Made by a program: the position numbers and the translations under genes
IMG/VR virus record: IMGVR_UViG_3300032331_001801
Reading direction: 5' to 3' (one strand)
Length of the DNA: 64,000 nt
Source: an uncultured virus (IMG/VR IMGVR_UViG_3300032331_001801)
Lineage: Duplodnaviria; Heunggongvirae; Uroviricota; Caudoviricetes
Shown here: positions 29,775 through 61,312 of the stretch, one piece after another
How positions within the stretch are numbered: the stretch's first letter is position 1
Layout: each line of letters opens with the position of its first letter
The notes under the pieces: generated by a model
Told to the model about the DNA's origin: nothing
Seen by the model: only the letters and a program-made list of their open reading frames with translations
The model's database searches: none

Positions 29775-29784
29775 GGTATAAAAA

Positions 29785-47164: not shown

Positions 47165-47184
47165 CGTTTACCGTTAATTACGGA

Positions 47185-47352
47185 TTAATTACTTAGACCG
47201 CAAATTGCTTGAATCTCCACCGCAGCGTAACCTTTCTCGATTGCTGACAGTTTACAATCATTGCGAAGGGTGGATGTGTAACTCAATGCACCAAACAGAA
47301 TACCGAAAAATATTAATAATCCTACAACCATCTTCAAAAAATCATTTTCCAT
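47185..47352 (-). CDS. Small membrane protein
   Basis: MENDFLKMVVGLLIFFGILFGALSY...C...EIQAIC; GGAG RBS. Confidence 0.55.
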   Translation of the reverse strand: MENDFLKMVVGLLIFFGILFGALSYTSTLRNDCKLSAIEKGYAAVEIQAICGLSN

Positions 47353-47560
47353 GTCTATCTCCATAAAGGTCAAATACTTTACCGCCAACATATACTGCAA
47401 CAAAATAAAAGTCCGGATTGCGTAAGTAAGCATTACGAAAGACACCTTTGTTGTAGTCTTCATAATAGTCTTTAGCTTCACCGCGAGTTTCGAACTCTTT
47501 TGTAAAAACCACATTGGGTTTTTTTCCGGTCATGTACCGGAGGACATCTACTCTATACAT
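47342..47560 (-). CDS. Hypothetical protein
   Basis: 72-aa ORF overlapping the next gene. Confidence 0.55.
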   Translation of the reverse strand: MYRVDVLRYMTGKKPNVVFTKEFETRGEAKDYYEDYNKGVFRNAYLRNPDFYFVAVYVGGKVFDLYGDRHGK

Positions 47561-48056
47561 TTAAAATAAGGAAGAAAGGATTGCAGCACCACTAAACGCT
47601 GATATAAACAAATATGTCCAGCCCCGTAAATTGTTATCTTCGATTTGGAAACTTTCAATAGCCCAAACCCAAAATAGAACCATAAAGATTACATTAAGAA
47701 TAAGCATGAACATCAGCAGCATCCTCCTGTACAACTCTGAAGCCTTTGTTTTCTAATTCTACTGCATAAACAAAGTCCTGTGTGTAGCCGATTTTATTAC
47801 CTTTGGGATCAAGTATCCACCATGTAGTTTTGATCATGGAGCCTCCGAATCATCAATATAACCAAGATACTCCGTGGCAACATATTCTACCATTGTCGGA
47901 GTAACACCTAACATGTTGGATACCTCTGTGACGCTTTTGTCAGCTTCCAACAATTCCATAATTTCTACGACCATCTTATTCAAGCCACTCATGATATGTT
48001 TCCTTTATTGAGAAAGTACGCATAGTTTACCATTATTGATTACTAGTGTCAAGTGT

Positions 48057-48308
48057 TTATTCCAGCAGTGTACGATTCTGAATATCCCAAAAATGCATCA
48101 CAGCATCTTTCGCAAAACTTAAATCAATGTATTGTCCTAGATGTTTTTCATCATCAAGAGTAAATGTATATTGACCCACATAGACTAATCCTATCCAGAT
48201 ATCGTTGGACATTAGTTTCGATACGGTGCCGACAATTTTACCAGTGTTAACATTATAGTAATAGTATGCCGACCCACGTTCTTTCCAATCAAATGTTTGT
48301 ATCATCAT
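48057..48308 (-). CDS. Hypothetical protein
   Basis: 83-aa ORF in packed operon. Confidence 0.6.
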   Translation of the reverse strand: MMIQTFDWKERGSAYYYYNVNTGKIVGTVSKLMSNDIWIGLVYVGQYTFTLDDEKHLGQYIDLSFAKDAVMHFWDIQNRTLLE

Positions 48309-48480
48309 TTAGTCCAAAGTATTTTGCGATTTCAACGCCAGGTGCGGCATCAGGATTATCTACATCTATTTCAATACATTTACGAATAATCAACTCAGCA
48401 AACATCTCTTGGTCAAAGTGTAGACCGTCTGTTCGTTCATCCCAACACTTGTTTGCTAGTACAGTCCATTGAAGATTCAT
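48289..48480 (-). CDS. FAELI-family small protein (paralogue)
   Basis: EMFAELIIRKCI...IAKYFGL. Confidence 0.65.
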   Translation of the reverse strand: MNLQWTVLANKCWDERTDGLHFDQEMFAELIIRKCIEIDVDNPDAAPGVEIAKYFGLNDDTNI

Positions 48481-48765
48481 TTACAGTCCTTATCCACAGT
48501 AGTAACGTGCATAGCCCACTCATGTAGATTGTCCCACAGGTCTGGTTCACCCGCAAATAGAAATACTAAAATTAATATAGCAAACACCATTATCTACCTT
48601 TCCACATATCAATCGCCTGTTGCAATTGTTCCATCTGTTTAAAGCGAATGTCATCCATGATACCCATACCATACCCCGAATCCATTTGCGCTTGTGTCAT
48701 GTTCCACAGAACGTCATGTTGCTTCTGGAGAGTATTAATGACGATATCGAATTCATCGAGTACCT

Positions 48766-49134
48766 TCATTCCTTTATCCTTCCAATTCGTGCTTCATGGT
48801 GTTCATCACATAGTGTTACGAACCACGGACCACTTCGTATCTTACCACGTTCACCACAGATTTCACAGGTATGTCCTGACATATATTCTGCCAGTGTAAC
48901 CATACCGTGAATCACATTATCTTCCTTTGACAGATAGAATCGTAGTTTACCAAACTTCTCTTTGATTTGGTCAACGTATACCTCATCGGGATCATGCGTA
49001 TATTCGGTAATAGCACCACACAGATGGTCGAGTATATTGTACCAACCATCTCCACACTCAAAACCCCAAAACTGTTGGTTAGAAAACAGTTTAGGGTATT
49101 TGTCTAGTAGTTGTTGTGTCAAGTCAGGATTCAT
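48766..49134 (-). CDS. Conserved phage protein (QIKEKFG family, C-terminal Cys/His cluster)
   Basis: GFECGDGWY.I, QIKEKFGKLRFY, TCEICG...TLCDEH. Confidence 0.75.
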   Translation of the reverse strand: MNPDLTQQLLDKYPKLFSNQQFWGFECGDGWYNILDHLCGAITEYTHDPDEVYVDQIKEKFGKLRFYLSKEDNVIHGMVTLAEYMSGHTCEICGERGKIRSGPWFVTLCDEHHEARIGRIKE

Positions 49135-49430
49135 ATTCCACCCATGTCTCGATCAGGAGCAAGATTATACTTCCGTTTGTATTGTGTTTCAACTGACCAC
49201 GATTCGTCGGTAGCAGGATATATGATATCACTTTCCACAGGAAGACCAAAATGTTTCTTTAGGTATGCTTTATCTGCTTGGGAACCCACACTTGATATAC
49301 ATTCTTTCACAATCAACTCAGCAAACTTTTCAAAAGTTTCTTGCGTGGCCACATAGTATTGGACACCGTTGCCAAACTCAGCATTACCTAATTTAGACTG
49401 TACTGCAAGTTCTTTAATCTTCTGGTTCAT
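49131..49430 (-). CDS. FAELI-family small protein (paralogue)
   Basis: MNQKIKELA...EKFAELIVKECI...LKKHFGL. Confidence 0.7.
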   Translation of the reverse strand: MNQKIKELAVQSKLGNAEFGNGVQYYVATQETFEKFAELIVKECISSVGSQADKAYLKKHFGLPVESDIIYPATDESWSVETQYKRKYNLAPDRDMGGI

Positions 49431-49602
49431 TGAAATCTTTCATATCAGTATGTCCATGTTTGGCATAGAACTGAGCATATGCCCAACCCTTCTTAAATGC
49501 GTAGTATCGTGCATCTGCCATTTTCAATCCTTCGGCGGTCATAGGCACTTGATACGATTCGGAATCACGCCATGCATTGTATACTATTTTGTCAGCTTCC
49601 AT
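49414..49602 (-). CDS. Hypothetical protein
   Basis: 62-aa ORF overlapping neighbours. Confidence 0.55.
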   Translation of the reverse strand: MEADKIVYNAWRDSESYQVPMTAEGLKMADARYYAFKKGWAYAQFYAKHGHTDMKDFNEPED

Positions 49603-49756
49603 TAGACTTCTCCAACAGTTCTATTCGATCCGCTGCTTCTTCTAATAGATCAGCGATTCTATCACGTTCACCTTCTTGTACCGATTTGCGAGTAGTAATC
49701 TGCCTACGAATCTCAGCACGTTTTCGTAAACGGTAAACTAAATCATTCTCATTCAT
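49592..49756 (-). CDS. Conserved small phage protein (54 aa)
   Basis: Manual translation MNENDLVYRLRKRAEIRRQITTRKSVQEGERDRIADLLEEAADRIELLEKSNGS*. Confidence 0.65.
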   Translation of the reverse strand: MNENDLVYRLRKRAEIRRQITTRKSVQEGERDRIADLLEEAADRIELLEKSNGS

Positions 49757-50022
49757 GGATTATTCCCAAAGTATGTGGATCGGTTCCGCATATTGGAATG
49801 TGGAGTCTCGATACCAAAGTGTTTCAGTATGCATTCATACGGATCATGATCTTCTCTTAGTGCAATATCGGCACAGGTACGGATAATCGTTTCGGCAAAG
49901 GCAAACACATCCTCTTCGGTAGCCCATGCTGACATAAAGTAATGACGAGGCGTTTCATGTTCAACATAGTTCAACAGTCCTGCCGTAACACCCAAGTGTG
50001 CAAGTATCTTATTTTGTTCCAT
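49753..50022 (-). CDS. FAELI-family small protein (paralogue)
   Basis: FAFAETIIRTCA...ILKHFGI. Confidence 0.65.
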   Translation of the reverse strand: MEQNKILAHLGVTAGLLNYVEHETPRHYFMSAWATEEDVFAFAETIIRTCADIALREDHDPYECILKHFGIETPHSNMRNRSTYFGNNP

Positions 50023-50233
50023 GTTCTTCCTTAAAGAAGTATTCTTTTATCTTATCGGCATACGTCGAGGCGGGTTCACGATGATCCACACCATCCTCTA
50101 CGATATCAATACAAATGTCTATGATATCCCTAGCAAACTCATAATTGAACTTGCGAGTGTCGTAGGTACCGTTCTCACGGGTCTGTATTCGTTTCTCGAC
50201 CTTCTTGGCGATGTATTCAATACGTATACTCAT
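50009..50233 (-). CDS. FAELI-family small protein (divergent paralogue)
   Basis: Start reassigned to MSIRIE; YEFARDIIDICI...IKEYF. Confidence 0.6.
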   Translation of the reverse strand: MSIRIEYIAKKVEKRIQTRENGTYDTRKFNYEFARDIIDICIDIVEDGVDHREPASTYADKIKEYFFKEEHGTK

Positions 50234-50430
50234 TGTATCTTCTTCCTTATGTAGATAGGAACCTTGACGTACCAGAAATACTTGTCTGCGAGTTCGGCGG
50301 TTGTGACCAAACACTTTCTATTATTATCGTCCATGTAGTAGTTACCCAAATCCACGTGCTTGAATCCATCTTCCCGATTAGCATCAGGAACCGTAATCAA
50401 ACACATCTCTTCAGTCAGTCTAAAAGTCAT
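50230..50430 (-). CDS. Hypothetical protein
   Basis: 66-aa ORF following a motif copy. Confidence 0.55.
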   Translation of the reverse strand: MTFRLTEEMCLITVPDANREDGFKHVDLGNYYMDDNNRKCLVTTAELADKYFWYVKVPIYIRKKIQ

Positions 50431-50441
50431 ATCGTTTACCG

Positions 50442-50936
50442 TTAATTATGTCTAGCGAAGTCACCATGTAATTCTTTTCGACCTGCGATTGCTGCTGCTT
50501 CAGCTTCTTTCAGATCATCAAAGTATCCTAGATGTATATTCTTACCGTTTAGCGATACAGTTACTTTATACTTTTTCTTGGTCTTACACCATGCCACACC
50601 TTTGACTCCAGTAACATTGGTCGCAGATTTTCTAGTATTATATGAATTCTGTGCCCGTGTAACTTCACGGAGATTCTCGATACGATTGTTGGTTTTTTCC
50701 ATATTGATGTGATCTATTTCCATTCCTTGTGTTAAATACCCGTTATGATACAGGAAAATTAATCGGTGAAGTAAATACTTTTTACGGTCAATCCCCACTC
50801 GATAATACCCTGCATGGCGATCAAGAACACCAGCGATGTTGCCTCTTAGTGCTGAACTGGAGCTAGTCTTTTTCCATATCAGATTACCATCATCTTGATA
50901 ATCGAATAGTTCATGGAGTTTTTCTTGTGTTATCAT
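50442..50936 (-). CDS. HNH endonuclease with C-terminal AP2-like domain
   Basis: HRLIF, IDHIN..KTNNRIENLR, N..GVKGV.W, HLGYF...EA. Confidence 0.9.
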   Translation of the reverse strand: MITQEKLHELFDYQDDGNLIWKKTSSSSALRGNIAGVLDRHAGYYRVGIDRKKYLLHRLIFLYHNGYLTQGMEIDHINMEKTNNRIENLREVTRAQNSYNTRKSATNVTGVKGVAWCKTKKKYKVTVSLNGKNIHLGYFDDLKEAEAAAIAGRKELHGDFARHN

Positions 50937-50947
50937 ATCGTTTACCG

Positions 50948-51427
50948 TTAATTATGTCTTGCATGAGTACCGTGATAAAAATTCCGTGCTGCAATTGCTG
51001 CTGCTTCAGCTTCCTCTAGTATATCATAGTAACCTATAAATTTATTCTTACCATCTACCATTACTCTCACTTCCCATTTCTGCTTGGCTTTATTCCACGA
51101 TACGCCTTTAATACCTGACTTATTCCTAGAGGAAGTTTTAGCATTAAACTGATTTTGTTGATTGGTAACTTCACGGAGATTGTCGATACAATTATTATTA
51201 CGATTCCCATCAACATGGTCGATCTGCAACCCATCAGTTAGATACCCGTTATGATACAGGAAAATCATTCGATGAAGACGATACATCTTTTTATCAATGT
51301 TTATACGCCAGTAACCTGTAGAAGTATCGAGAGTACCAGCAATCTTTCCCACATTTCTAGTTGTTTTCCATATCAGAGAACCATCCCGATATTCGAATAG
51401 TTCATGGAGTCTTTGTTGTGTAATCAT
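50948..51427 (-). CDS. HNH endonuclease with C-terminal AP2-like domain (tandem paralogue)
   Basis: HRMIF, IDHVDGNRNNNCIDNLR, NKSGIKGVSW, FIGYY...EEA. Confidence 0.9.
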   Translation of the reverse strand: MITQQRLHELFEYRDGSLIWKTTRNVGKIAGTLDTSTGYWRINIDKKMYRLHRMIFLYHNGYLTDGLQIDHVDGNRNNNCIDNLREVTNQQNQFNAKTSSRNKSGIKGVSWNKAKQKWEVRVMVDGKNKFIGYYDILEEAEAAAIAARNFYHGTHARHN

Positions 51428-51440
51428 AGTTCGTTTACCG

Positions 51441-51719
51441 TTAATCCCACTTTAACCAAGCTTTGATGTTATGCTTGAGAGCAATAGAATCAGATTCTTC
51501 ACACCCTACGTAATCGACATGATCTAAACAATCTTGCACAATTAATTCGGCGAATTTTACTTCAAATGCCTCATTTGAATCTTTATACAAATCTTTTACA
51601 TTATTAGGATTATTGGCATAGTGCCAAGCTTTGTGCCGCAGTGTGTGAAGGCGAAAATTTTTAAAGATTCCCTTTCTGCTGACGATCCTTCGTTGTATGT
51701 CAAGTTCAGAACGAGTCAT
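51441..51719 (-). CDS. FAELI-family small protein (paralogue)
   Basis: VKFAELIVQDCL...IKAWL; GGAG RBS. Confidence 0.65.
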   Translation of the reverse strand: MTRSELDIQRRIVSRKGIFKNFRLHTLRHKAWHYANNPNNVKDLYKDSNEAFEVKFAELIVQDCLDHVDYVGCEESDSIALKHNIKAWLKWD

Positions 51720-51742
51720 AATGATTCTCCAATCGTTTACCG

Positions 51743-51994
51743 TTAATTACTGTTAATCTCAAAGTGACGTTTAATTGCATCAGTGCATTCTTTGGCAAAC
51801 AATGCAGTTGGTGCTTGATCATGTAAGAATCTACCACCCTCTATAACACCCATACATTCCTCAAGAATCAGTGAAACAAATTTTTCACGACGAAGTGTAA
51901 TGATACCTTCATTACTCCAAAACCCTGATCGTTTAACTGTAGTACTTACATAATCTTCAGCTTGTTCAGCAAGTTCTTTGACTATTGGATTCAT
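51743..51994 (-). CDS. FAELI-family small protein (paralogue)
   Basis: MNPIVKELAEQA...EKFVSLILEECM...IKRHFEI; GGAG RBS. Confidence 0.65.
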   Translation of the reverse strand: MNPIVKELAEQAEDYVSTTVKRSGFWSNEGIITLRREKFVSLILEECMGVIEGGRFLHDQAPTALFAKECTDAIKRHFEINSN

Positions 51995-52046
51995 TGTGTT
52001 TCTCCGTTATTTACTGTTCGTTTACCGTTAATTACTAATTGAACTA

Positions 52047-52075
52047 AGTTTACCGCAAAAAAAATTCTGTGTCAA
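52047..52075 (-). promoter_or_regulatory. sigma70-type promoter for the 52.0-48.1 kb operon
   Basis: TTGACA-17 nt-TAAACT; the -10 overlaps a CGGTAAAC core. Confidence 0.7.
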
Positions 52076-52237
52076 GTTTTTACTGGAAAAAAAAATTTGG
52101 ATGCTCATTCATACATTCGTAAGAGTTCTCTTTTGAAATAGCATGTTCCTTCTAGCGTTCAGTACAGTAGTAGAATAGCAATTGTCGTTTTGGTATCATG
52201 TGTTGTATTTGCACCACACATACACAAAATACTTGAC

Positions 52238-52298
52238 ATGCTGTGCTTTCTGTGCTCTGCTGCCCACCTGCTGTGCCCCTGCTGCTCTGCTCCGCAGG
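52238..52298. repeat. Strand-biased CTG/GCT-rich low-complexity tract
   Basis: TGCTGTGCTTTCTGTGCTCTGCTGCCCACCTGCTGTGCCCCTGCTGCTCTGCTCCGCAG; GC-rich in an AT-rich genome. Confidence 0.75.
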
Positions 52299-52336
52299 TA
52301 TCCGGTTTTTCCGGATAACCCGCAGAAAGTCAAGCT

Positions 52337-52483
52337 TTATTTTAAATTCGTTGCTTTCCAAGTTTCAACCTGATCGTACAAGTTGCTAAGATCGTAAGAA
52401 ATCCAAGTGCCAATGCAAACCCCATTTTTTTCCAATTTGGCAACGTAGCCCATTTTTCCGTATGTGTAAACTGTTTCTAACAT
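52337..52483 (-). CDS. Small hypothetical protein (48 aa)
   Basis: MLETVYTYGKMGYVAKLEKNG...; AGGGGG RBS. Confidence 0.5.
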   Translation of the reverse strand: MLETVYTYGKMGYVAKLEKNGVCIGTWISYDLSNLYDQVETWKATNLK

Positions 52484-52497
52484 GGCAAGCCCCCTGA

Positions 52498-52629
52498 TTA
52501 CGAAATTAAATTAATTGCTGTTTTAACACCAGAATTTGCTGCGTCCACGGCATCCCCGAAAATGTCCTTAGTGACAGCAGGGTAAACCAGAGCTAACATA
52601 AACAATGCACCTGCCAGAAATTTAATCAT
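52498..52629 (-). CDS. Small membrane/secreted protein (43 aa)
   Basis: MIKFLAGALFMLALVYPAVTKDIFG...; TAGGGG RBS. Confidence 0.55.
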   Translation of the reverse strand: MIKFLAGALFMLALVYPAVTKDIFGDAVDAANSGVKTAINLIS

Positions 52630-52642
52630 TGTACGCCCCTAA

Positions 52643-52825
52643 TTAAGCTGCTATTAAGTCGGTCAAGTTACAAGCTTTTAAAAATTTCGCGGTATCAAAA
52701 CGTGGGTTGCTCTGTTTCAAGATTGGCAAAATAGCCATTGCACGATTTTTCCGATCTGTATCATTTTGGATTAATTTCACGCTGAAGGCAAAAGCTTGGA
52801 AGTCTTTTTTTGTCATCATTTTCAA
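52643..52825 (-). CDS. Conserved small phage protein
   Basis: MTKKDF..FA...NPRFD..KFL.AC; start probably the ATG at 52819. Confidence 0.7.
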   Translation of the reverse strand: MKMMTKKDFQAFAFSVKLIQNDTDRKNRAMAILPILKQSNPRFDTAKFLKACNLTDLIAA

Positions 52826-52904
52826 TCCCCTTATTAATCAGTCAGTAAACGTATAGTATCAATAAACGGTAAACGTGTCAACTGTTTTTTTAAAAATAAA
52901 CCAC

Positions 52905-52933
52905 TTGATTTTTTACCGATTATCAGGTATAAT
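52905..52933 (+). promoter_or_regulatory. sigma70-type promoter firing into noncoding DNA
   Basis: TTGATT-17 nt (containing TTTACCG)-TATAAT. Confidence 0.65.
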
Positions 52934-53023
52934 GGTTGCAATGGTTCGAACAGCGTGTCTGGGGGTGGACGTGGAGAGTGGGCGTTATATTAGTAGTTTA
53001 CTAATACTAACGGTGAACCTTTC

Positions 53024-53052
53024 AGTATAGCATAGATTTTCAGGATTGTCAA
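53024..53052 (-). promoter_or_regulatory. sigma70-type promoter convergent with 52905
   Basis: TTGACA-17 nt-TATACT. Confidence 0.7.
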
Positions 53053-53142
53053 GTGGTCGGCGGTGTGTTGCGGAAATACAACAATGGTACTCGGTGCTTG
53101 ACTTTGGCGCGATTCTGTGTTATATGGCGCGATACTCTGAAT

Positions 53143-53161
53143 GGTAATGAGAATGATTCGC
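53143..53161. promoter_or_regulatory. Fur-box-like site 1
   Basis: GGTAATGAGAATGATTCGC, 14/19 match to GATAATGATAATCATTATC. Confidence 0.55.
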
Positions 53162-53289
53162 AGTTAGCTGTACCACAATGTCCCACAAAAACACACCAAA
53201 TCAACTAGTGCGTTTACATTGTGACTGACCAGTCATAAAACGACTGACAATACAAATTAATTTATTGTTTGCAAATACAAATCACCATT

Positions 53290-53308
53290 GCAAATGATTC
53301 TCATTTAC
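53290..53308. promoter_or_regulatory. Fur-box-like site 2
   Basis: GCAAATGATTCTCATTTAC, 13/19 match to the same consensus. Confidence 0.55.
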
Positions 53309-53325
53309 ACTTTATCGATGGTCGT

Positions 53326-53352
53326 AAAAAAACCCGCCAAGTTTCAGCGGGT
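53326..53352 (-). terminator. Intrinsic terminator closing the cassette array
   Basis: A7 + CCCGC-loop-GCGGG. Confidence 0.75.
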
Positions 53353-53378
53353 AAGGGGAGAGTTACTAATTAGCTATG

Positions 53379-53528
53379 CTATACTGTCACCATGTCATTA
53401 GCAGAAAAATAAGACGTTTTCATGTATTGTACCAGTAGTGCTGTTTTGGTCGATAACTTCGTGCAGAAATTACCATTAAATTCAAACGAATCGCCTACAT
53501 TCAAATCCGAAAATTTTACTTTTTTCAT
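53379..53528 (-). CDS. Small hypothetical protein (49 aa)
   Basis: MKKVKFSDLNVGDSFEFNGNFCTKLSTKTA...; GAGG RBS. Confidence 0.55.
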   Translation of the reverse strand: MKKVKFSDLNVGDSFEFNGNFCTKLSTKTALLVQYMKTSYFSANDMVTV

Positions 53529-53543
53529 AATGATAATCCTCTA

Positions 53544-53774
53544 TTAAGCTGTTTCTTTTTTGTCAATCATTTCGAACAGTATAAATTTTGCTACATTCAA
53601 TTGCTGACGTACTTGCTCTGATCTACCCATTGCTGTTAGCTCTTGACAATCCGACAATATACCTGCCACGACCATCTCCAGACCAGAAAATTTCGCGGTT
53701 ATACTATCCATATATTGTGTGCGTATTGAATCTTCTGTCATACCAAACATTTTAACTTGATCTGCTGTAGTCAT
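53544..53774 (-). CDS. Cassette ORF, hypothetical
   Basis: Own promoter and TAGGGG RBS; ILSDCQE...RQQLNVAKFIL. Confidence 0.7.
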   Translation of the reverse strand: MTTADQVKMFGMTEDSIRTQYMDSITAKFSGLEMVVAGILSDCQELTAMGRSEQVRQQLNVAKFILFEMIDKKETA

Positions 53775-53842
53775 TTATCGCCCCTATGTGATTAACCAAC
53801 AAATGAATTATCGCATAATCGGTAAACGTTGTCAAGCATTAT

Positions 53843-54184
53843 TTAAACTAATTTCAATAATTTATTGTAATTCTCTGGACTAACGAACACACTAGCAGTT
53901 GCAGGTTTACCACAAAATACACCAGTTTCAATAATAGCAATATCATTATCGATTTTGACAACTGGTTCTGTGCCGCCAAACTGTGGTGGTGCATATTGAG
54001 CGCAGGTAGTAATCTGACCTGTTACAATATTAACAATGGTATAACTAGAACGACTACCGCCATCCCAATAGGTATTTGACAATGTTATTTTTTCTCTGCT
54101 CTGAATGAATGCCTTGCGTTTTTTGTAACCTGCTGGCATCAATCGAGCAATTTCAGGAAAACCAGATAATGTAACTGTTTGCAT
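53843..54184 (-). CDS. Cassette ORF, conserved hypothetical (YWDGGSR motif)
   Basis: Own promoter and RBS; YWDGGSRS.Y...G.FCGK. Confidence 0.75.
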   Translation of the reverse strand: MQTVTLSGFPEIARLMPAGYKKRKAFIQSREKITLSNTYWDGGSRSSYTIVNIVTGQITTCAQYAPPQFGGTEPVVKIDNDIAIIETGVFCGKPATASVFVSPENYNKLLKLV

Positions 54185-54242
54185 TTTTCGCCCCTAATTA
54201 ATCAATCAACAGAACAAATTATATTATAATCGGTAAACAATG

Positions 54243-54641
54243 TCAAGCGATAAATTCGTATGGTTTATCCCATTTTCCCACGTTTACGTCAACGTAGTAC
54301 GCTGTATCGAAATAATCACTTTGACTATCTGTTCTGTCGTACCAATCCGCACTTTTCATTGCAGGAACCAACTCAGACAATGCTGCTTTGGCAACACCGT
54401 TGAAGTGCTCATGATACCAATACGTATTAACCTGTATCGATTTTTCAGCACCCTGAAAACGTGGAGTTGACGCATTTGTCAAGTTAAAATTACCGATAAA
54501 ATCAATTGAACCTGATTTTAGTGTCAACACAATTGTCATATGATTACTAACCGACAATGTGCCTTTGAGTTTATATTTTGCTAATATCGGTTTGATTGCC
54601 GCCGCGATTTTCGCTTTTTTCTCTTGATTCATATATGCCAT
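54243..54641 (-). CDS. Cassette ORF, LPD29-like (D.Q.DYF motif) hypothetical
   Basis: MAYMNQEKK..., WYDRTDSQSDYFDTAYY..V.VGKWDKPY; stop codon lies within next TTGACA. Confidence 0.7.
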   Translation of the reverse strand: MAYMNQEKKAKIAAAIKPILAKYKLKGTLSVSNHMTIVLTLKSGSIDFIGNFNLTNASTPRFQGAEKSIQVNTYWYHEHFNGVAKAALSELVPAMKSADWYDRTDSQSDYFDTAYYVDVNVGKWDKPYEFIA

Positions 54642-54700
54642 TTTGTATCCCCTAATTAATCAATCAACAGAACAAATTATATTATAAACGGTAAACAATG

Positions 54701-54877
54701 TCAAGCGTTTTCTGTACCGCAAACTAAACAAGTGCAACCTTCATGCGGTGTATCATCCTCGCAGGGTTCGCAGAGTTTCCACGAATCGGCAAATAGTGTA
54801 CCATTTTTGACCGCATCATAAACAGCATACTGACCGCCATTTTCGTAAATTTCAACGGCTTTTTCGTAATTTGTCAT
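54701..54877 (-). CDS. Cassette ORF, small Cys-rich protein (58 aa)
   Basis: Manual translation ...WKLCEPCEDDTPHEGCTCLVCGTENA*; two CxxC. Confidence 0.65.
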   Translation of the reverse strand: MTNYEKAVEIYENGGQYAVYDAVKNGTLFADSWKLCEPCEDDTPHEGCTCLVCGTENA

Positions 54878-54944
54878 TTTTGCACCCCTATTAATTAACC
54901 AGAAATGATATGGTACTATAAACGGTAAACAATGTCAAGAGATA

Positions 54945-55181
54945 TTATGCATCTTTTTTGCAAAAATAATTCTTAGCACTATTCCAAAAATTTGAACAAT
55001 CAAGCATTAACGTATAATCGTGACCATCATAATTTAAACCTAATTTTCGTAATGCCAGATAACGTAATACATTTTCTTCTTCTACGTCCATATCAGCCAT
55101 TGCCTCAATAAATGCTTTTTCTTCATTATTAATACCGTTGCGCTTAAATTCGTTCAAATCGACTGTAATTGTAAGTTCCAT
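54945..55181 (-). CDS. Cassette ORF, paralogue of 55660-55902
   Basis: EFKRN...AFIEAM..M.VEEENVLRYLAL.KLGL.Y. Confidence 0.75.
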   Translation of the reverse strand: MELTITVDLNEFKRNGINNEEKAFIEAMADMDVEEENVLRYLALRKLGLNYDGHDYTLMLDCSNFWNSAKNYFCKKDA

Positions 55182-55250
55182 TTTTTGCCCCTAATGATTA
55201 ACCAGAAACAACAGTATACTATTAACGGTAAACAATGTCAAGCATTAATT

Positions 55251-55601
55251 TTAAATAATTGCGGTAATTCTACGATCTTTCAAGTGAACTTCACGCGCAT
55301 GAAAAATAGGCTGCTTTGTGTCTGCTGTCACGAATGAATCGTACAGATAAGGGTTATATGTTACCGATACGCCGGAATCCATCGCCTGAACTGTGCCGTA
55401 CCATTCACCGACCACACCCGCATGAACATTTTTACGCTTTTCCAATAGAACACGCTTACGCCCCGCTTGCGACACTTTGAATGTAGCCTGACCAAGATTC
55501 AATTCTGACAAGTGCGCTATAACACGACCTTTGTCTGCACCTTCCAGAGCTTTAACTGAAAATACTTTCTTATGTAAATTGTAATAAACAAATACTTTCA
55601 T
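55251..55601 (-). CDS. Cassette ORF, conserved phage protein
   Basis: VFVYYNLHKKVFSVK, F.VSQAGR.RVL.EKRKNVHA.V.G, VTYNPY. Confidence 0.8.
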   Translation of the reverse strand: MKVFVYYNLHKKVFSVKALEGADKGRVIAHLSELNLGQATFKVSQAGRKRVLLEKRKNVHAGVVGEWYGTVQAMDSGVSVTYNPYLYDSFVTADTKQPIFHAREVHLKDRRITAII

Positions 55602-55659
55602 TTTCGCGCCCCTATGTGAACAATCAACAAAGACAGTATCTCATAAACGGTAAACAATG

Positions 55660-55902
55660 TCAAGCGGTTTTTGCTTCCTTACGGAAAAAACTAGCCGCCG
55701 AACCCCAAATACTCGCACCATCTTGCATCAATGTGCGATCCTCGTCCTCATAGTCCAAACCCAACTTAGTCAATGCCAAATATTTCAATACATTTTCTTC
55801 TTCTACGCCTACATGACCCATCGCTTCAATGAATGCACGATCTGATTGGCTAGTTGAATTACGCTTAAATTCTTTTACATCAATGTCAAGTGTAATATTC
55901 AT
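55660..55902 (-). CDS. Cassette ORF, paralogue of 54945-55181
   Basis: Start reassigned to MNITLD; EFKRN...AFIEAM...VEEENVLKYLAL.KLGL.Y. Confidence 0.75.
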   Translation of the reverse strand: MNITLDIDVKEFKRNSTSQSDRAFIEAMGHVGVEEENVLKYLALTKLGLDYEDEDRTLMQDGASIWGSAASFFRKEAKTA

Positions 55903-55959
55903 TTTGTCGCCCCTATTAATCAATCAACAAACGTATGGTATCATTAACGGTAAACAATG

Positions 55960-56244
55960 TCAAGCAATAATTTTACCGTCTGAATTTACCAACACTTCAT
56001 TATCGGTGATTGTCACATTATTACGCAAACCCGCAACCATTGCCAAAAGTCTATTTGCTGCTGCTTCTGGTGAAGTCTCTGCAATCCATGCTACCATACG
56101 CAATTCAGATACCAACGACGATAACAAAACAGCATTAGCACGATCACGTGAATTTTTGTCAGATAGTGACATAGCAACGTCAACCAGTTTATTTGTGGTT
56201 AGTTCGATAGAACGTAGATCATCAGTATTGAAGTCGAAAAACAT
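55960..56244 (-). CDS. Cassette ORF, paralogue of 58406-58645
   Basis: L.SIE.TTNKLVD...ELR.VA..AE....AA.NRLLAMVA. Confidence 0.72.
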   Translation of the reverse strand: MFFDFNTDDLRSIELTTNKLVDVAMSLSDKNSRDRANAVLLSSLVSELRMVAWIAETSPEAAANRLLAMVAGLRNNVTITDNEVLVNSDGKIIA

Positions 56245-56300
56245 TTTTATCCCCTATTAATTAACCAGAAATGATATGGTACTATAAACGGTAAACAATG

Positions 56301-56492
56301 TCAAGCAATTTGTGATAAAAGATATTTTGCCAATACGACAACAGCCTGTGGGTATGTCACGAATTCTGTTTCACCTAGAGCACCACGCAGTCTAACAGGC
56401 GTATCATCATTGATACCGTCATACTCTGTTGTCTGAATGACAAATGAACCGTTATCTAATTCGCAAATTGCATAACTATTAAGCTTTTCCAT
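56301..56492 (-). CDS. Cassette ORF, hypothetical
   Basis: TAGGGG RBS; stop within TTGACA. Confidence 0.65.
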   Translation of the reverse strand: MEKLNSYAICELDNGSFVIQTTEYDGINDDTPVRLRGALGETEFVTYPQAVVVLAKYLLSQIA

Positions 56493-56505
56493 TTTTCGCC
56501 CCTAA

Positions 56506-56649
56506 TTAATATGCGTCAGCCATAGTTTCCATAAATGCATCAAATATCAATTCAACATCGGCAATGCTCACATTATACTTTTCGGCGATCTGTCTAAATG
56601 ACAACTCACCCAACGAAAATTCTTCCTCGATTTTGTAAACTGTGCTCAT
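56506..56649 (-). CDS. Cassette ORF, small HTH-like protein (47 aa)
   Basis: MSTVYKIEEEFSLGELSFRQIAEKYNVSIADVELIF...; GAGG RBS. Confidence 0.6.
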   Translation of the reverse strand: MSTVYKIEEEFSLGELSFRQIAEKYNVSIADVELIFDAFMETMADAY

Positions 56650-56713
56650 AATCACCTCACTAATAATTAACCAATGAACAGATTATAACCAATAATGGTA
56701 AACGTGTCAAGCA

Positions 56714-56887
56714 TTATTTTACGTTTATTTCACCTACTTTGTTGCCATTTGAATCATACACATAATCCGAAAAATCGCCGCTTTCTCTGTAACGTGTAGC
56801 AATCGATTCTAATATATCCGACAATTCTGTAGGGTTATCCTCAAATGCTGCATTGTCGGTAGTTATCTGAATAGTAATTGTGCTCAT
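56714..56887 (-). CDS. Cassette ORF, conserved small protein (57 aa)
   Basis: I.I.TDNAAFED...EL..IL..IA...D.NGNKVG. Confidence 0.65.
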   Translation of the reverse strand: MSTITIQITTDNAAFEDNPTELSDILESIATRYRESGDFSDYVYDSNGNKVGEINVK

Positions 56888-56899
56888 TGTATGCCCCTA

Positions 56900-57256
56900 T
56901 TAAATTGACCACTTAGCTTCATTGTAACCATCTAGCTTATACAATGCTGAATTGATAATTTGATTAATTACTTTTTTGGCGGTGCTAGTTTCATAACCAT
57001 CAAACTCGCATGACTGATAATCTAAGCATTTCGCTGCTTTGATTGCCTGAACTGGTGTTAGCAATTTTTTAGGGGTTGACGCATAGTCAATGGTTGCTGT
57101 ATTTTTTTCATTATAACGCACATTGACACTTGTAATATTTGCATCGAGTAATGTAGTTGCTGCGGTTTGAGCTAAATCGGCGGTGAATGCATTATTGGCA
57201 ACAGCAAAACTTACCAATGATGCAATGTGCTCATTACTTACGATAAATGCTGACAT
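56900..57256 (-). CDS. Cassette ORF, conserved hypothetical (YQSCE motif)
   Basis: MSAFIVSNEHI..LV, N..SVN.RY, CLDYQSCE. Confidence 0.78.
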   Translation of the reverse strand: MSAFIVSNEHIASLVSFAVANNAFTADLAQTAATTLLDANITSVNVRYNEKNTATIDYASTPKKLLTPVQAIKAAKCLDYQSCEFDGYETSTAKKVINQIINSALYKLDGYNEAKWSI

Positions 57257-57325
57257 TTTTTTCTCCTAATTAATTAACCAATGAACAGAGTATATCAATA
57301 AACGGTAAACGTGTCAAGCATTAAT

Positions 57326-57595
57326 TTAAATATTTCCTGCTTCCAATCCAGAAATTTTACCTGTTGCTAGTATGATATCACGAACACGCTCACGATCTAA
57401 GGTATCGCCGCAAAATTCTTCATCGTTTACATCTAAGCAAGTAATGTATAATTTTGTTGCCAAAACGATTTGTTCTACGGTAAAACCTAGCGGATAGATG
57501 CCAAGTGCACCATAAAAACTAAATGTATAATCCACAAAATCATTAATGAATTCAGTTGTTGGAATGCTACCGCAATTAGTCATTTGTGTTGTCAT
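57326..57595 (-). CDS. Cassette ORF, hypothetical
   Basis: FVDY..SFYG..GIYP, F.GDTLDRERVRDI. Confidence 0.72.
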   Translation of the reverse strand: MTTQMTNCGSIPTTEFINDFVDYTFSFYGALGIYPLGFTVEQIVLATKLYITCLDVNDEEFCGDTLDRERVRDIILATGKISGLEAGNI

Positions 57596-57654
57596 TTCAA
57601 TCCCCTAATTAATTAGTCCCAATAAACAGAGTATATCAATAAACGGTAAACGTG

Positions 57655-57885
57655 TCAAGCATCAACTACTGATGCATAAACAGATTTATATGGTACATTA
57701 TATACATAATTTGCAAAGTTTTTTGCGTCATCATGAGACTTAAATTCGAAAAGATAGCCTTTATCTGTAGCATTGTAATGTGTCCCATCATACATCTTTA
57801 AACCAGCCTCAACATATTTTACATCTTTAGGATGTGGTTTATTTCCGTATATGCTACCGTCATCAACATGAACAAGAATTTCCAT
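57655..57885 (-). CDS. Cassette ORF, hypothetical
   Basis: Own promoter and RBS; stop within TTGACA. Confidence 0.68.
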   Translation of the reverse strand: MEILVHVDDGSIYGNKPHPKDVKYVEAGLKMYDGTHYNATDKGYLFEFKSHDDAKNFANYVYNVPYKSVYASVVDA

Positions 57886-57951
57886 TTTAATCCCCTAATT
57901 AATTAACCAATGAACAGATTATACCTATTAACGGTAAACGTGTCAAGTGTT

Positions 57952-58155
57952 TTATAAATTAATTTGTAAATCGTATTTTGTATCATTAGTGTAACAAGTG
58001 TACCCTAAACCTGCATATTTACCCTCGATACACTCTTTATAGATTTTTCTGCAATAATTATTGAGTTCAATAAAATCACCCACACCCTCTGCAATCTGCT
58101 TTTTGGTTGTGTAAAATGAAACACCATTAACAATGATTCGAATTTTCTTAGCCAT
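57952..58155 (-). CDS. Cassette ORF, hypothetical
   Basis: GGAG RBS. Confidence 0.62.
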   Translation of the reverse strand: MAKKIRIIVNGVSFYTTKKQIAEGVGDFIELNNYCRKIYKECIEGKYAGLGYTCYTNDTKYDLQINL

Positions 58156-58170
58156 GTGATATGCTCCCGA

Positions 58171-58338
58171 TTATGCTACGCAATAACCACTACGAATCAA
58201 TTCAGATGCCATGCGACCATAGGAACCTTGCAATTGCCATGCCAAGCCAGAATTAATTAGACTTTGAAACAATTCAATGGTTTGTTCTGCATCTAATTCA
58301 CCTTCTTCGTATGCCATCATTTGTGAGACTTGATCCAT
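58171..58338 (-). CDS. Cassette ORF, conserved small protein
   Basis: Start reassigned to MDQVSQ; YE.GEL.....[22 protein letters not shown]. Confidence 0.75.
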
Positions 58339-58405
58339 TTTTTTCTCCCTAGAATTAATCAACCAACACACACATAGTATCAATAAACGGTAAACGTGTC
58401 AAGCA

Positions 58406-58645
58406 TTATTTTACTAAAATTTCTTGGCTTTCCAAATCAGCAACTAACGCCAATAGTCTATCAGTTGCAGCACCTTTATCATATTCTGCCATCATTGCCA
58501 CAGAACGTAGTTCTTTCATAATAATAGATAATTGTTGTGTATTTGTTAATCCAATCGAATTTTCTGACCATACCAAATTAACAATGTCAAGTAAACGATT
58601 AGTTGTCTTTTCGATACTTGCTAAGTTTTCAAGTGTATAATTCAT
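58406..58645 (-). CDS. Cassette ORF, paralogue of 55960-56244
   Basis: Start reassigned to MNYTLE; LASIEKTTNRLLD...ELRSVA..AE...AATDRLLALVA. Confidence 0.72.
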   Translation of the reverse strand: MNYTLENLASIEKTTNRLLDIVNLVWSENSIGLTNTQQLSIIMKELRSVAMMAEYDKGAATDRLLALVADLESQEILVK

Positions 58646-58646
58646 T

Positions 58647-59003
58647 TTACATACTCCAATAAGTTTCACTAGCAGGATTGCAGCACCACGGCGTATCAGC
58701 AGGTATAACCACATCTTTACCTGTCATTAGATTTTTGACAGTTTTTGTTGCACCTTCTATCATATAATGACGGTAGCTGCGTATTTTAGAATTACGATTT
58801 GTATGCTTATTAACCACTTGCAAATAATTCAAACCATACGCATTTGCAAATATTGCATAATCGATATCTTCTTCCAGATATGCGTATTCACCACGTTGAT
58901 AACTAAAATTTGATATCTTACCTGCAATACCCAATTTTTCGAGTAATGCTTTTGGAACTTTCAACCAACCGTGACCTGCATCTGTGTAATATGTGAATTT
59001 CAT
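58647..59003 (-). CDS. Cassette ORF, conserved hypothetical
   Basis: DAGHGWLKV...IS.FSY....YLEED.D, plus C-terminal KNLMTGK....DTP.CC.P.SETYWSM module. Confidence 0.78.
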   Translation of the reverse strand: MKFTYYTDAGHGWLKVPKALLEKLGIAGKISNFSYQRGEYAYLEEDIDYAIFANAYGLNYLQVVNKHTNRNSKIRSYRHYMIEGATKTVKNLMTGKDVVIPADTPWCCNPASETYWSM

Positions 59004-59061
59004 TTTTATCTCCCAATAAAATCAATCAACAAACATATAGTAACAATAAACGGTAAACGTG

Positions 59062-59280
59062 TCAATCTCTTTTTGATGATGCCACGCGATTAATATATTT
59101 GTGTTCCATAATTACCACATCACGTTCAGCACCATACACATTAATAGGTGTATCTAATTTGACATGATGACTAACGCCACCGCCATAGGTAACACGCGAT
59201 AAGCTTACAGTACCACGAATTGGAAACTCACCCATATAGTTACCAAAAACTGTCATACCTTCAAGATTCCATGTGCTCAT
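59062..59280 (-). CDS. Conserved small phage protein
   Basis: WNLEG..V.G.YMG.FP..G.V.LSRV.YGG.V.H.V.LD.PI.VYGA.R. Confidence 0.72.
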   Translation of the reverse strand: MSTWNLEGMTVFGNYMGEFPIRGTVSLSRVTYGGGVSHHVKLDTPINVYGAERDVVIMEHKYINRVASSKRD

Positions 59281-59379
59281 AATTAAATCCCCATGCGATC
59301 AAGTAATGCTTCAATGACAAGATAGATGCCGCCAACAATTCCTGCTATAACAAAGAATATTTCGATTGTTTCCATTTTA

Positions 59380-59565
59380 TCACTCCCAATCTTCATCAGT
59401 ATTATTAACAACCACAACGCTATTATTACCGATAATCGGTTCGCTGTCAACAACTATTTTCGGTAATTCAATTATTTCTGGTAATGTATAAGATAGCGCA
59501 ATAATACCAACGCAAGCGGCAATTAGTATTATTTGAAATAAAATTATAAAAAGAATAAACATCAT
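59380..59565 (-). CDS. Small membrane protein
   Basis: N-terminal TM segment, acidic tail. Confidence 0.55.
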   Translation of the reverse strand: MMFILFIILFQIILIAACVGIIALSYTLPEIIELPKIVVDSEPIIGNNSVVVVNNTDEDWE

Positions 59566-59750
59566 TCATCCAGTATTGATAACTGTTGAACATGATATTC
59601 GTTTTTAATTTGTGAGATATAATCTTCTGTTAGCTGTTCTTTCTTAAATGCTAACAGTTTTTCTTTGGTAGAGTGTGCGGATAGATTTATCCACGGATTG
59701 ACTTTTGCGTTTGTCTTAGGACGAAATTGTAAAATCCAGATGTGTTTCAT
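59562..59750 (-). CDS. Hypothetical protein
   Basis: First ORF after the promoter at about 59.8 kb; AAGGTG RBS. Confidence 0.6.
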   Translation of the reverse strand: MKHIWILQFRPKTNAKVNPWINLSAHSTKEKLLAFKKEQLTEDYISQIKNEYHVQQLSILDE

Positions 59751-59984
59751 AATGCACCTTAATTAAGTTATTTAATTTAAGTGTACACATAAACGGTAAA
59801 CCTGTCAAGTATTATTTTGCGGGAACACAACGAAAACGCTCTGTTGAAATACTCATTAATTTTGCAGCATCTTTACAACTTTCTAGCGTATGATGTGTGG
59901 TAAGATAACGCCAATCGTGTGCCTGTACCAATGATGAATTTTGACCTGACATTGCAACTACGGTATAGATCATTAGTGCGAAAT

Positions 59985-60191
59985 TCATGATTCACCTTTC
60001 AGTTTAATAATAATATCTTTTTTAATGCACAATTGTGCATCGCGTGTGCGTAGATAATATCCGCTTTTGGATATACATTCCTGCTCTTTTGCATCCCATT
60101 TGTTTTTTTCTGTTGCCACAACAAATGCAACCATACTACCAATAATAAACAATAGTAGTATAAAACCTAGTTTATCATTGTACCATATCAT
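59985..60191 (-). CDS. Small membrane protein
   Basis: TM segment then C...G......C. Confidence 0.6.
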   Translation of the reverse strand: MIWYNDKLGFILLLFIIGSMVAFVVATEKNKWDAKEQECISKSGYYLRTRDAQLCIKKDIIIKLKGES

Positions 60192-60325
60192 TTTAATGGT
60201 ATTTGTTCTTTAGGTGAAACCCATGCACCCGCAGATTGTAAATCTTTACCTGCACCTTGCAAGATACCCGCTGTGGTATTACATGCAGCCAATGATACTA
60301 ACATAATCAACAAAACTATTTTCAT
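60188..60325 (-). CDS. Entericidin EcnA/B-like lipoprotein (45 aa)
   Basis: Manual translation MKIVLLIMLVSLAACNTTAGILQGAGKDLQSAGAWVSPKEQIPLK*; lipobox LAAC + NT..G.G.D...AG. Confidence 0.7.
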   Translation of the reverse strand: MKIVLLIMLVSLAACNTTAGILQGAGKDLQSAGAWVSPKEQIPLK

Positions 60326-60488
60326 GATTGTTCTTTCAATTCTTTAATTCGTTCAGCCAATACAGATGCGGCAGTATTATAATGTCCTGTTGCACCTGTG
60401 TTCGGATTGTAATAATATCGTAAAAGAGTTTCCATTTCAGTTTGTAGAACTGCAATGTATTCCTCTCTGCTAGTAAAAAACTGTTTCA

Positions 60489-60806
60489 TTAAGAAATTCC
60501 TGTCCAGCTTAATGTTGGATAATCGTTATTCAATACATTACCTCTTGGATAGTTTTTTGCTGGTGTTTTGTATGTTGCTGCTTTCCATATATCACCAGTA
60601 GATTTGTCAATAAACGAATGTACATATTTTTTGATACTGTTTTTGCTGCTCCACGGTTTGAATGATACCTTAACATATTTGTTGCCAATTTTGAATTCAA
60701 CGCTATGATCGACAATTGTAGATTCTGTAACATTTACATAAGAAGATATGATAGCATCTTTGTAACCAATCAATGCCACCGCTAATTCGTCAGATACTTT
60801 TTTCAT
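60489..60806 (-). CDS. Conserved phage protein
   Basis: G.KY.KV, VHSFIDK.TGDI.KAA.YK.PAK..RGNV. Confidence 0.75.
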   Translation of the reverse strand: MKKVSDELAVALIGYKDAIISSYVNVTESTIVDHSVEFKIGNKYVKVSFKPWSSKNSIKKYVHSFIDKSTGDIWKAATYKTPAKNYPRGNVLNNDYPTLSWTGIS

Positions 60807-61036
60807 TATACCATTTCTCCGTAAGCAATTGAATCATTAGTGTAGGATTGTGAAGCATACAACAATTGTTCGTGACCTGCAAACATTTCAAAAACCATTT
60901 CTTCGTACTCTGCCTCAACAACAGCATTTATAGCATCATCAGCCAACTTAGTCAAGAACAGATTTACTTGATCAATAGTCATAACATCCTCGAATTAATT
61001 ACCATAAACAGATAATATCAAATATCGGTAATCGTG

Positions 61037-61312
61037 TCAAGTAATATCTATAAAATCGTGCTTAGTTTTTATTATGTGTATGAATTCTTGTATTTGTGAC
61101 AAGTCTGGACGTTCTTTATATGTTCCAATGTATAATCCACGAATTCTATCTAATCCACGAATAGAATCGACATCACGAACATATCTGTATTCAAAATGAA
61201 AACCCATTTGTCGCTTCTTTATGACAAAATTCTGAAACTCTTGAAAATTGCCAGCAACAATATAAATTGGATATTCATCACCCCTGAACAACTGTTTTAT
61301 GTATAAAAACAT
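61037..61312 (-). CDS. Hypothetical protein
   Basis: IVAGN..EF, Y.YV.....IRGL, G.YIGTY.ER.D; AGGAG RBS. Confidence 0.68.
   Translation of the reverse strand: MFLYIKQLFRGDEYPIYIVAGNFQEFQNFVIKKRQMGFHFEYRYVRDVDSIRGLDRIRGLYIGTYKERPDLSQIQEFIHIIKTKHDFIDIT

Follow-up and report, generated by a model that had tools for sequence, protein, structure and literature searches.

T4-like phages try new genes in hyperplastic regions of their genomes, and the regulation and exchange of the cassettes involved are known only in outline, from work on promoter early stem-loops (PeSLs). In the sections of the two papers considered here, PeSLs are described for the T4-type phages RB49/phi1, PST/T4 and nt-1/KVP40 (PMC2839356, PMC4122927), and PeSL cassettes are reported as mini-circles excised by recombination between the flanking modules (PMC2839356). 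We analysed a stretch of 64,000 nt from an uncultured virus of the Caudoviricetes (IMG/VR record IMGVR_UViG_3300032331_001801; the whole stretch is called “the window” below), in which an 8-bp word, CGGTAAAC on one strand and GTTTACCG on the other (the “core”), recurs at gene junctions. Two families of junction modules carry the core in opposite orientations, i.e. a right array of promoter modules (R family, 52.85-61.04 kb) and a set of mostly promoterless junctions in a left operon (L family). We propose, with a probability of roughly 0.5, that these are PeSL-like junction modules with an operator-like core for a putative DNA-binding regulator, used in two orientations.

The R modules resemble the PeSLs, as far as these are described in the sections considered, in three respects. 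A repeated sigma70-like early promoter, a Shine-Dalgarno motif and a start codon precede small ORFans in a hyperplastic region, the joints of insertions, deletions and replacements between close relatives fall in the modules, and the promoters have the near-perfect form TTGACA-N17-TATAAT, as in RB49/phi1. Three further features set the window apart. Its R promoters have no preceding stem-loop, as only one of the 17 upstream 60-mers had a folding z-score below -2 (mean dG -7.0 kcal/mol), the spacer contains an invariant 8-bp core that is as conserved as the -35, and there is a second, promoterless junction type that has the same word inverted. Neither an invariant spacer word nor a promoterless array with the same word inverted as a 14-bp junction is described in the parts of the PeSL papers considered.

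The core can also be compared with the binding sites of phage transcription factors. TF1 of phage SPO1 binds early promoters, and the MotA box lies at -30 of T4 middle promoters. As in these cases, the window has a short specific word within the RNA-polymerase footprint of many early phage promoters, a likeness suggesting that a phage factor may switch the temporal class of the genes. The core is located at about -28 to -20 and the -35 is intact, whereas the Mot box (which is mentioned in the part of PMC4122927 considered) at -30 replaces the -35. Further differences are that the inverted copies of the window have no -10 on the other strand, and that no transcription regulator is described among the PHROG hits of the window (90 queries, three repeats), a weak negative because the genome is incomplete. 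A promoter-spacer word of 8 bp that is held like the -35 points to a putative regulator of early genes in this lineage of uncultured freshwater phages.

The exact core is present in 25 copies in the window when both strands are counted, compared with an expectation of 1.17 (standard deviation 0.93, maximum 4, 100 shuffles). For the 13-mer ATWAACGGTAAAC, 36 matches with at most two mismatches were found versus 4.68 expected. All 25 core copies are confined to 46.0-59.8 kb and none lies in 1-46082; a preliminary description of this DNA had noticed no intergenic copies in the left 46 kb. CGGTAAAC is found 15 times on the plus strand (52867-59794) and nine times on the minus strand (46083-52048), with one contrary copy at 49731, and the orientation of the core switches between 52.05 and 52.87 kb. 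The 14-mer CGTTTACCGTTAAT was recovered in six exact copies, at 47165, 50433, 50939, 51432, 51734 and 52019, the same coordinates as those given before.

The R family comprises 18 promoters, each with the core in its spacer; 17 are minus-strand promoters, spread from 61040 to 52881, and the one at 52905-52933 is on the plus strand. The form is TTGACA-N17-TAnnnT, or GATAAT or GATACT serves as the -10. On the minus strand the layout is cTTGACA-(1-2 nt)-GTTTACCG-(T/A)T(T/A)(A/T)T...-TAnnnT with a 17-nt spacer, so that the core is trailed by a W-rich stretch. Three of the 18 promoters have a one-base variant of the core. Each minus-strand promoter is followed by the conserved leader ctgttcattggttaattaatt, a Shine-Dalgarno-like G-rich run (AGGGG or AGGAG in most cases) and a start codon, and a module of this kind precedes almost every small open reading frame (ORF) of the right array. 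The right-hand plus-strand copies had been said to lie always in promoter spacers, and indeed all of them are in 17-nt spacers of minus-strand promoters.

Conservation could be assessed because a pattern scan identified a second IMG/VR genome with the same organisation (G001; 53,984 bp). It runs in the opposite direction and reaches 24 kb past the right end of the window, and the two are 70-97% identical in collinear blocks, most of them 82-96%. G001 is collinear with the window across 53381-52018 and has the flip at the homologous place, with 13 forward and six reverse copies of the 10-mer GTTTACCGTT; five of the reverse copies form the L array and one is coding. The strand count in a relative, as called for in the preliminary description, thus gave the same flip, and an assembly artefact at the junction is excluded by this independent contig. 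The additional 24 kb of G001 contain three core copies, none of them in a TTGACA-spacer or an L-junction context.

We compared 33 R promoters of the window and G001; the regular expression used had missed two per phage, in which the -10 starts with G. Positions 2-6 of the core are invariant (33/33) and the other core positions are conserved in 30-32 of the 33 promoters. The -35 hexamer has values of 31-33/33, its first four bases being as invariant as core positions 2-6, and the two middle positions of the -10 have 18/33. The distance between -35 and core is 1 nt in 20 promoters, 2 nt in 11 and 0 nt in two. When 14 promoters were paired by position between the two phages, which are about 90% identical, the differences amounted to 0/84 in the -35, 1/112 in the core, 21/109 in the rest of the spacer and 11/84 in the -10. 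The core is thus located in the RNA-polymerase footprint and is more constrained than the neighbouring spacer bases, as would be typical of an operator, and the earlier statement that the motif goes beyond a simple promoter hexamer or a ribosome-binding site (RBS) stands. The best inference is that the core has its own sequence-specific function as a signal read by a DNA-binding factor, because homogenisation of whole modules cannot give the contrast between core and spacer. This contrast also speaks against an explanation without any trans-acting factor, in which duplication, gene conversion and PeSL-type recombination would have generated both arrays, the L junctions being degraded half-promoters that inherited the word. 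Such processes keep the whole module alike, and they do not readily account for a core that has a constant sequence while it is shifted by 1 nt relative to the -35.

The L family is part of a single minus-strand operon, with genes from 51994 down to 47185, a promoter at 52075-52047 and an intrinsic terminator at 47165-47146 (z -4.17). The L copies span 52.03-50.43 kb plus 47.17 kb, and the 14-mer is opposite to the R orientation. The operon promoter has the form TTGACA-17-TAAACT, with a core copy (52048-52055) that overlaps the -10, and it is conserved in G001. Downstream of it, the 14-mer at 52019-52032 (ATTAACGGTAAACG in mRNA sense) is located in the 5′ leader of the operon. The claim that the left copies are promoterless therefore holds for most of them, but not for this copy, which lies about 15-30 nt downstream of the promoter.

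Four consecutive gene junctions follow, at each of which the TAA of the motif is the stop codon of the upstream ORF, i.e. at 51734-51747 (ORF 51743-51994), 51432-51445 (ORF 51441-51719), 50939-50952 (50948-51427) and 50433-50446 (50442-50936). The latter two lie between two HNH-AP2 genes and past the second one, respectively. The last copy (47165-47178), at the operon end, directly precedes the terminator hairpin and is degenerate in G001. In mRNA sense the junction reads (t)aATTAACGGTAAACGa, and it is followed by a GGAG or GGAA RBS in two of the six window copies and three of the six G001 copies. Eleven of the 12 copies in the two phages have an identical 14-mer between variable flanks; the twelfth, at the operon end of G001, has one change. 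The cassettes bounded by it are two ORFans of 92 and 83 aa (51441-51994, absent from G001) and two genes for HNH_3 + AP2 endonucleases of 159 aa (50948-51427) and 164 aa (50442-50936), which are 57% identical to each other; all are encoded on the minus strand.

An internal promoter of the operon (48024-48052, minus strand) has the same form, TTGACA-17-TAAACT, a core variant matching 7/8 positions over its -10 (AATAATGGTAAAC; TGGTAAACT), and it is kept in G001. The sequence TAGTAAT...GGTAAAC of the L junctions recurs in the spacer and -10 of this promoter, which is why the junctions may be regarded as half-promoters. Junction 51734 even retains a weak TTGAGA-17-TAAACG. Both features would also be expected if no factor were involved, and the parts of PMC4122927 considered describe both insertions and deletions mediated by conserved promoter modules and degraded half-PeSLs. 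The 14-mer is, however, invariant between unrelated cassettes and between HNH genes that are only 55-61% identical, which decay of an inherited half-promoter does not explain. We regard the explanation without a factor as unlikely.

As promoters in their own right, the L copies were rejected as candidates for sigma70, as the -10 would be TAAACG and only the copy at 51734 has a -35-like hexamer. Reading of the sequence around the L copies also revealed no -35/-10 on the plus strand, i.e. no antisense promoters.

In the proposed mechanism, the core would serve as operator for a single regulator that binds double-stranded DNA sequence-specifically and is either phage-encoded or of host origin. 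Bound to the RNA-polymerase footprint of the 18 R and two L promoters, the regulator would shut off or tune early transcription. The L junctions would be half-promoters, derived from an L-type promoter by retention of the part with the -10 and the operator. Each array would have been amplified from one ancestral module, the flip being the border between the arrays. A repressor is more likely than an activator, since the R promoters are near the consensus.

Several points weigh against this proposal. The promoter array of a distant relative (L233/L244) also has partly conserved spacers, as would be expected without a factor, and homogenisation of paralogous modules could be behind some of the conservation. 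For five L copies there is no overlap with a promoter, and an operator role does not explain them; a roadblock, a relic or a recombination site are guesses. The motif is carried by only two genomes and three fragments, and the early timing of the R promoters is taken by analogy from T4 biology. Lastly, the candidates for a DNA-binding protein in this incomplete genome have only weak helix-turn-helix, HU-like or AbrB-like matches below the family cut-offs. One of them is the 52-aa ORF downstream of the internal promoter (47834-47992, minus strand), with weak helix-turn-helix signals (HTH_Tnp_ISL3, E 0.0035, below the cut-off; further leads under 0.9), which makes it a candidate regulator only. 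A 49-aa ORF (56506-56655) likewise has a sub-threshold DNA-binding match only.

A third candidate, a 63-aa ORF adjoining tRNA-Trp (44109-44300, minus strand; phrog_661), matches the MazE/AbrB-type swapped-hairpin with E 5.5e-5, just under the cut-off, and its product is possibly a small DNA-binding protein.

Since the two arrays share their direction of transcription, the inverted orientation would also be required if the two versions of the word paired as RNA. Read-through transcripts of the R array would contribute CGUUUACCGUUWAU, which could pair with AUUAACGGUAAACG just 5′ of the RBSs of the L genes and control their translation or processing. The complementarity comprises 13-14 of 14 positions, and only two minus-strand terminators are predicted within both arrays, at 53352 (53332-53352) and 47165. 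The complementarity ends exactly at the 14-mer, though, and the copy at 47165 precedes no gene. Folding did not reveal a role for RNA either: five of the six L junctions are unstructured (z +0.28 to +1.15 versus shuffles), and no consistent pairing partner of the R spacer, the RBS included, was predicted across the 16 R modules folded. Furthermore, regulation of five ORFan junctions would not explain the strict core in all 18 R promoters. RNA pairing is therefore very unlikely in our estimation.

Both kinds of module are sites of cassette exchange. At 8 of the 16 window R modules, homology to G001 is found on one flank only or on neither. An insertion at the end of a homology block is represented by ORF 57655-57885, which lies between two promoter copies, and replacements were also seen. 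Among the L cassettes, w83 and w92 are present in the window but not in G001, and g122, g131 and g99 in G001 but not in the window. We mapped Logan contigs from four runs onto 46.5-62 kb. One contig of a run from a different study (X3) joins 51732 to 52018, skipping 285 nt, and 19 letters at the joint fit both sides. This is an exact deletion of one cassette, the 83-aa ORF, from L motif to L motif. In other X3 contigs, 54644 is joined to 54885, by which one R cassette is removed, and 54641 is joined to 58647. The comparisons show that R and L modules alike are places where cassettes have been swapped, gained or lost.

The junction modules also supply a stop codon to whichever cassette precedes, either the TGA of the -35 or the TAA of the L motif ATTAACGG. 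In the R family, the stop codon of the preceding ORF is often located within the -35 or immediately upstream of it. In G001 (L023), the upstream stop was found inside the -35, as the TGA of TTGACA, at the promoters 29347, 32076, 32417 and 33362.

Integrons offer a further comparison for the L array. Their attC sites are imperfect palindromes of 57-141 bp with a GTTRRRY core. The L operon is similar in that a row of promoterless, unrelated ORFs has one upstream promoter and a conserved site bounding each ORF, the cassette content varies between close relatives, and a single cassette can be precisely deleted. The L site differs in its length of 14-19 bp, in having no match to the GTTRRRY core (as judged by eye) and in having no hairpin. 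In addition, the ORFs scanned against PHROG and Pfam gave no hit to an integrase or recombinase, tyrosine recombinases included.

An integron-like exchange without an integrase could be driven by DNA breaks, if the HNH-AP2 proteins or another phage enzyme recognised or cleaved the 14-mer. The three HNH_3 + AP2 genes (two in the window, one in G001) are themselves L cassettes, and although they are only 55-61% identical, each is bounded by identical 14-mers, while a neighbouring 66-aa ORF is 89% identical between the phages. A double-strand enzyme would also be indifferent to the orientation of its site, and homology breakpoints as well as the natural deletion lie exactly at the motif. These joints are, however, accounted for by short-homology recombination alone, as for the PeSLs in the sections of PMC2839356 considered. 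Of 59 homologous HNH-AP2 genes of other viral contigs, only one has the 7-mer within 100 nt, so that 58 are unaccompanied by the motif. As the site survives insertion on both sides, the phage would cut its own genome at 20 or more places. Conservation like that of a -35 at a fixed place within promoters suggests selection on expression rather than on shuffling. A nuclease site is thus an unlikely explanation of the motif. A combination, in which one phage protein (possibly an HNH-AP2 or the small helix-turn-helix protein of the left operon) reads the 14-mer, silences the early promoters and marks the junctions at which cassettes with and without promoters are cut and pasted, has a rather slim chance of being correct; it would amount to a regulated, site-directed and integron-like exchange of cassettes in a T4-like phage. 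If it were true that one protein reads both modules, this would couple the shuffling of genes to their regulation.

The orientation flip had been taken as a sign of an oriented DNA-level signal that is organised around a special locus. The constrained DNA element was upheld by the analyses above, but an organisation around genome ends or a replication origin was not. The polarity of the R copies follows from their fixed place in promoter spacers, since the direction of the genes sets the strand. Because each class consists of paralogous copies of one module, the 15-versus-6 polarity represents about two independent events rather than 21, and two independent orientations differ by chance half of the time. 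We infer that the flip is the border between two gene-cassette arrays, which needs no genome-scale axis; it coincides with an operon boundary, marked by promoter 52075 and ORF-less stretches. Amplified modules can thus mimic a genome-scale polarity signal.

In the alternative, genome ends, a terminal-repeat junction (with a Chi-like or end-protection signal) or an origin near 52-53 kb would organise a polar signal. The orientation switch across 52.05-52.87 kb is present in two phages, and the region contains ORF-less DNA, divergent and convergent promoters and a purine-rich tract beside a long hairpin. In T4 origins a promoter is combined with an unwinding element. Promoters and a hairpin are present in the ORF-less stretches at 52.09-52.34 and 52.94-53.33 kb, which may harbour an origin, but none of the analyses points to one. 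Neither GC skew nor AT skew has an inflection at 52-53 kb. T4-group genomes are circularly permuted and terminally redundant according to the part of PMC4122927 considered, and fixed genome ends would not be expected in this phage because it is T4-like. A gp2-type DNA end protector is encoded in the window (phrog_429, PHROG scan), and the two assemblies are collinear across the region, which likewise speaks against ends or a terminal-repeat junction.

A Chi-like or end-protection signal fares no better. Chi, FtsK-orienting polar sequences (KOPS) and other polar motifs are scattered over the whole replicon, mostly within genes. The core shares with them the length of 8 bp, the orientation and a strand switch at one place. 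It differs in that every meaningful copy is fixed in a repeated regulatory module, a promoter or a junction, within 14 kb, with no copy in the other 46 kb of the window and, in the additional 24 kb of G001, only the three copies outside of module contexts. With only about two effectively independent orientations, we consider genome ends, a Chi-like signal or an origin as the cause of the flip highly improbable.

The core copies at 46083, 46531 and 49731 all lie inside coding sequences, as noted before. Those at 46083 and 46531 are parts of identical 15-mers (AAGTTTACCGAAAAT), 448 nt apart, in an ORFan ORF of 537 aa (45440-47053, plus strand). In G001 the exact core is retained only at the position equivalent to 46083 (G001 44021), and none is listed for 46531 or 49731. 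As only one of the two keeps the core, the pair looks like a coding repeat outside of the motif system.

Beyond the two phages, viral and metagenome pattern and protein scans identified only three fragments, L152, L155 and L157, as further carriers of the motif. The remaining metagenome matches were single copies, most of which had no -10 at promoter distance, and none was BLAST-similar to the window. A 16-mer searched in IMG/VR gave, apart from the array of five in G001, single copies only, nearly all of which were coding matches to INGKR; a 15-mer from the ORF-less region matched G001 only. Arrays of the core were absent from 79 loci of relatives that are 31-63% identical in ORF 41829-42896, and these relatives have CTTGACA-N17-TAtACT arrays with other spacers. 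Closer homologues of this ORF, 74-92% identical, are also known, one of them on a contig of 105,868 bp. From these sequence comparisons the core word is specific to this phage lineage, because the 79 distant loci have no array and the other matches are lone copies. Among the publications listed as containing GTTTACCGTT or AACGGTAAAC, titles and abstract starts revealed none on a T4-like phage promoter or on this motif.

The individual R promoters of the window vary in some details. From right to left on the minus strand, the first one (61012-61040) has the core variant GATTACCG in its spacer. Exact cores are present at 59780-59808, 59037-59065, 58374-58402, 57289-57317, 55935-55963, 55213-55241, 54676-54704 and 54218-54246. 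The promoter at 57918-57946 has an exact core, its spacer contains the L-set 14-mer CGTTTACCGTTAAT, and homology to G001 is found on its upstream side only; that at 57630-57658, also with an exact core, has such homology on its downstream side only, and that at 54910-54938 (exact core) has no G001 match on either flank. A core variant, GTTTACCA, is present at 56682-56710, and the G001 orthologue has GTTTACCG. The cores are exact at 56276-56304, which has a 2-nt linker, at 55635-55663 (-10 GATACT) and at 53807-53835 (-10 GATAAT). The last minus-strand promoter (52853-52881, exact core) is upstream of three small ORFs (52825-52337). The divergent R-like promoter on the plus strand (52905-52933), TTGATT-17-TATAAT with TTTTACCGATTAT in the spacer, faces ORF-less DNA and is conserved in G001.

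This ORF-less DNA of about 450 bp (52905-53352) is about 90% conserved in G001. The promoters at 52905-52933 (plus strand) and 53052-53024 (minus strand) face each other, with a predicted transcript overlap of about 75 nt, and the minus transcript from 53052 begins with the motif-like GTTCACCGTTAGT and an 8-bp hairpin. On the other side of the flip, the untranslated 52085-52340 (minus strand) contains a hairpin of 16 base pairs that lacks a U-tract, and next to it a purine-rich tract of CAG/GCA repeats (fold z -2.33). Rfam had no match at 51.9-53.5 kb at E values up to 1. Directly past the left-operon terminator, a perfect promoter, TTGACA-18-TATAAT (47087-47116, minus strand), has no ORF downstream; it is antisense to the 3′ end of the plus-strand 537-aa gene, and a small or antisense RNA may arise from it. 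Two further minus-strand terminators are located outside of the arrays, at 63116-63099 and 46791-46771.

PHROG scans identified T4-type genes in the window, i.e. those for the baseplate wedge and hub and for the tail tube protein (phrog_45), together with matches to a gp4-like head closure protein, gp3, gp32, the gp59 helicase loader and a dexA-type exonuclease. Identity of the gp32 homologue to the 2,469 phage records that matched it does not exceed 53.5%, and the closest of these are cyanophages. Searches of 50,697 phage records, by megablast with 50-56 kb and by blastn with a single R module, gave no meaningful match. Judged from the PHROG hits, the low gp32 identity and the missing megablast match, the window is part of an uncultured, distant T4-like myophage.

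Additional genes of the window are informative about the phage. A two-piece (permuted) transfer-messenger RNA (tmRNA) of the betaproteobacterial type is encoded at 29774-30157 (minus strand; Rfam beta_tmRNA 132 bits, tmRNA_permuted 140 bits), with the tag ANDAFYGEDRLAA according to ARAGORN. Its type hints at a betaproteobacterial host. Besides the tmRNA, the window has one tRNA. An 800-aa gene (34575-36977, minus strand; phrog_2295, unknown function) has a GC content of 46-50%, compared with about 36% in the rest of the window, and was possibly acquired or is compositionally constrained. A sugar-nucleotide cluster (37854-40566, minus strand) encodes a nucleotide-sugar epimerase, a dTDP-4-dehydrorhamnose 3,5-epimerase-like protein, a GT2 glycosyltransferase and a heptose kinase/adenylyltransferase-like protein. 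Together with a 2OG-Fe(II) (2-oxoglutarate-dependent) oxygenase gene at 61869-62678, it could serve DNA or surface-sugar modification. A gene for a D-alanyl-D-alanine carboxypeptidase (Peptidase_S11, E 5e-39; 62968-63858, minus strand) adjoins the early array.

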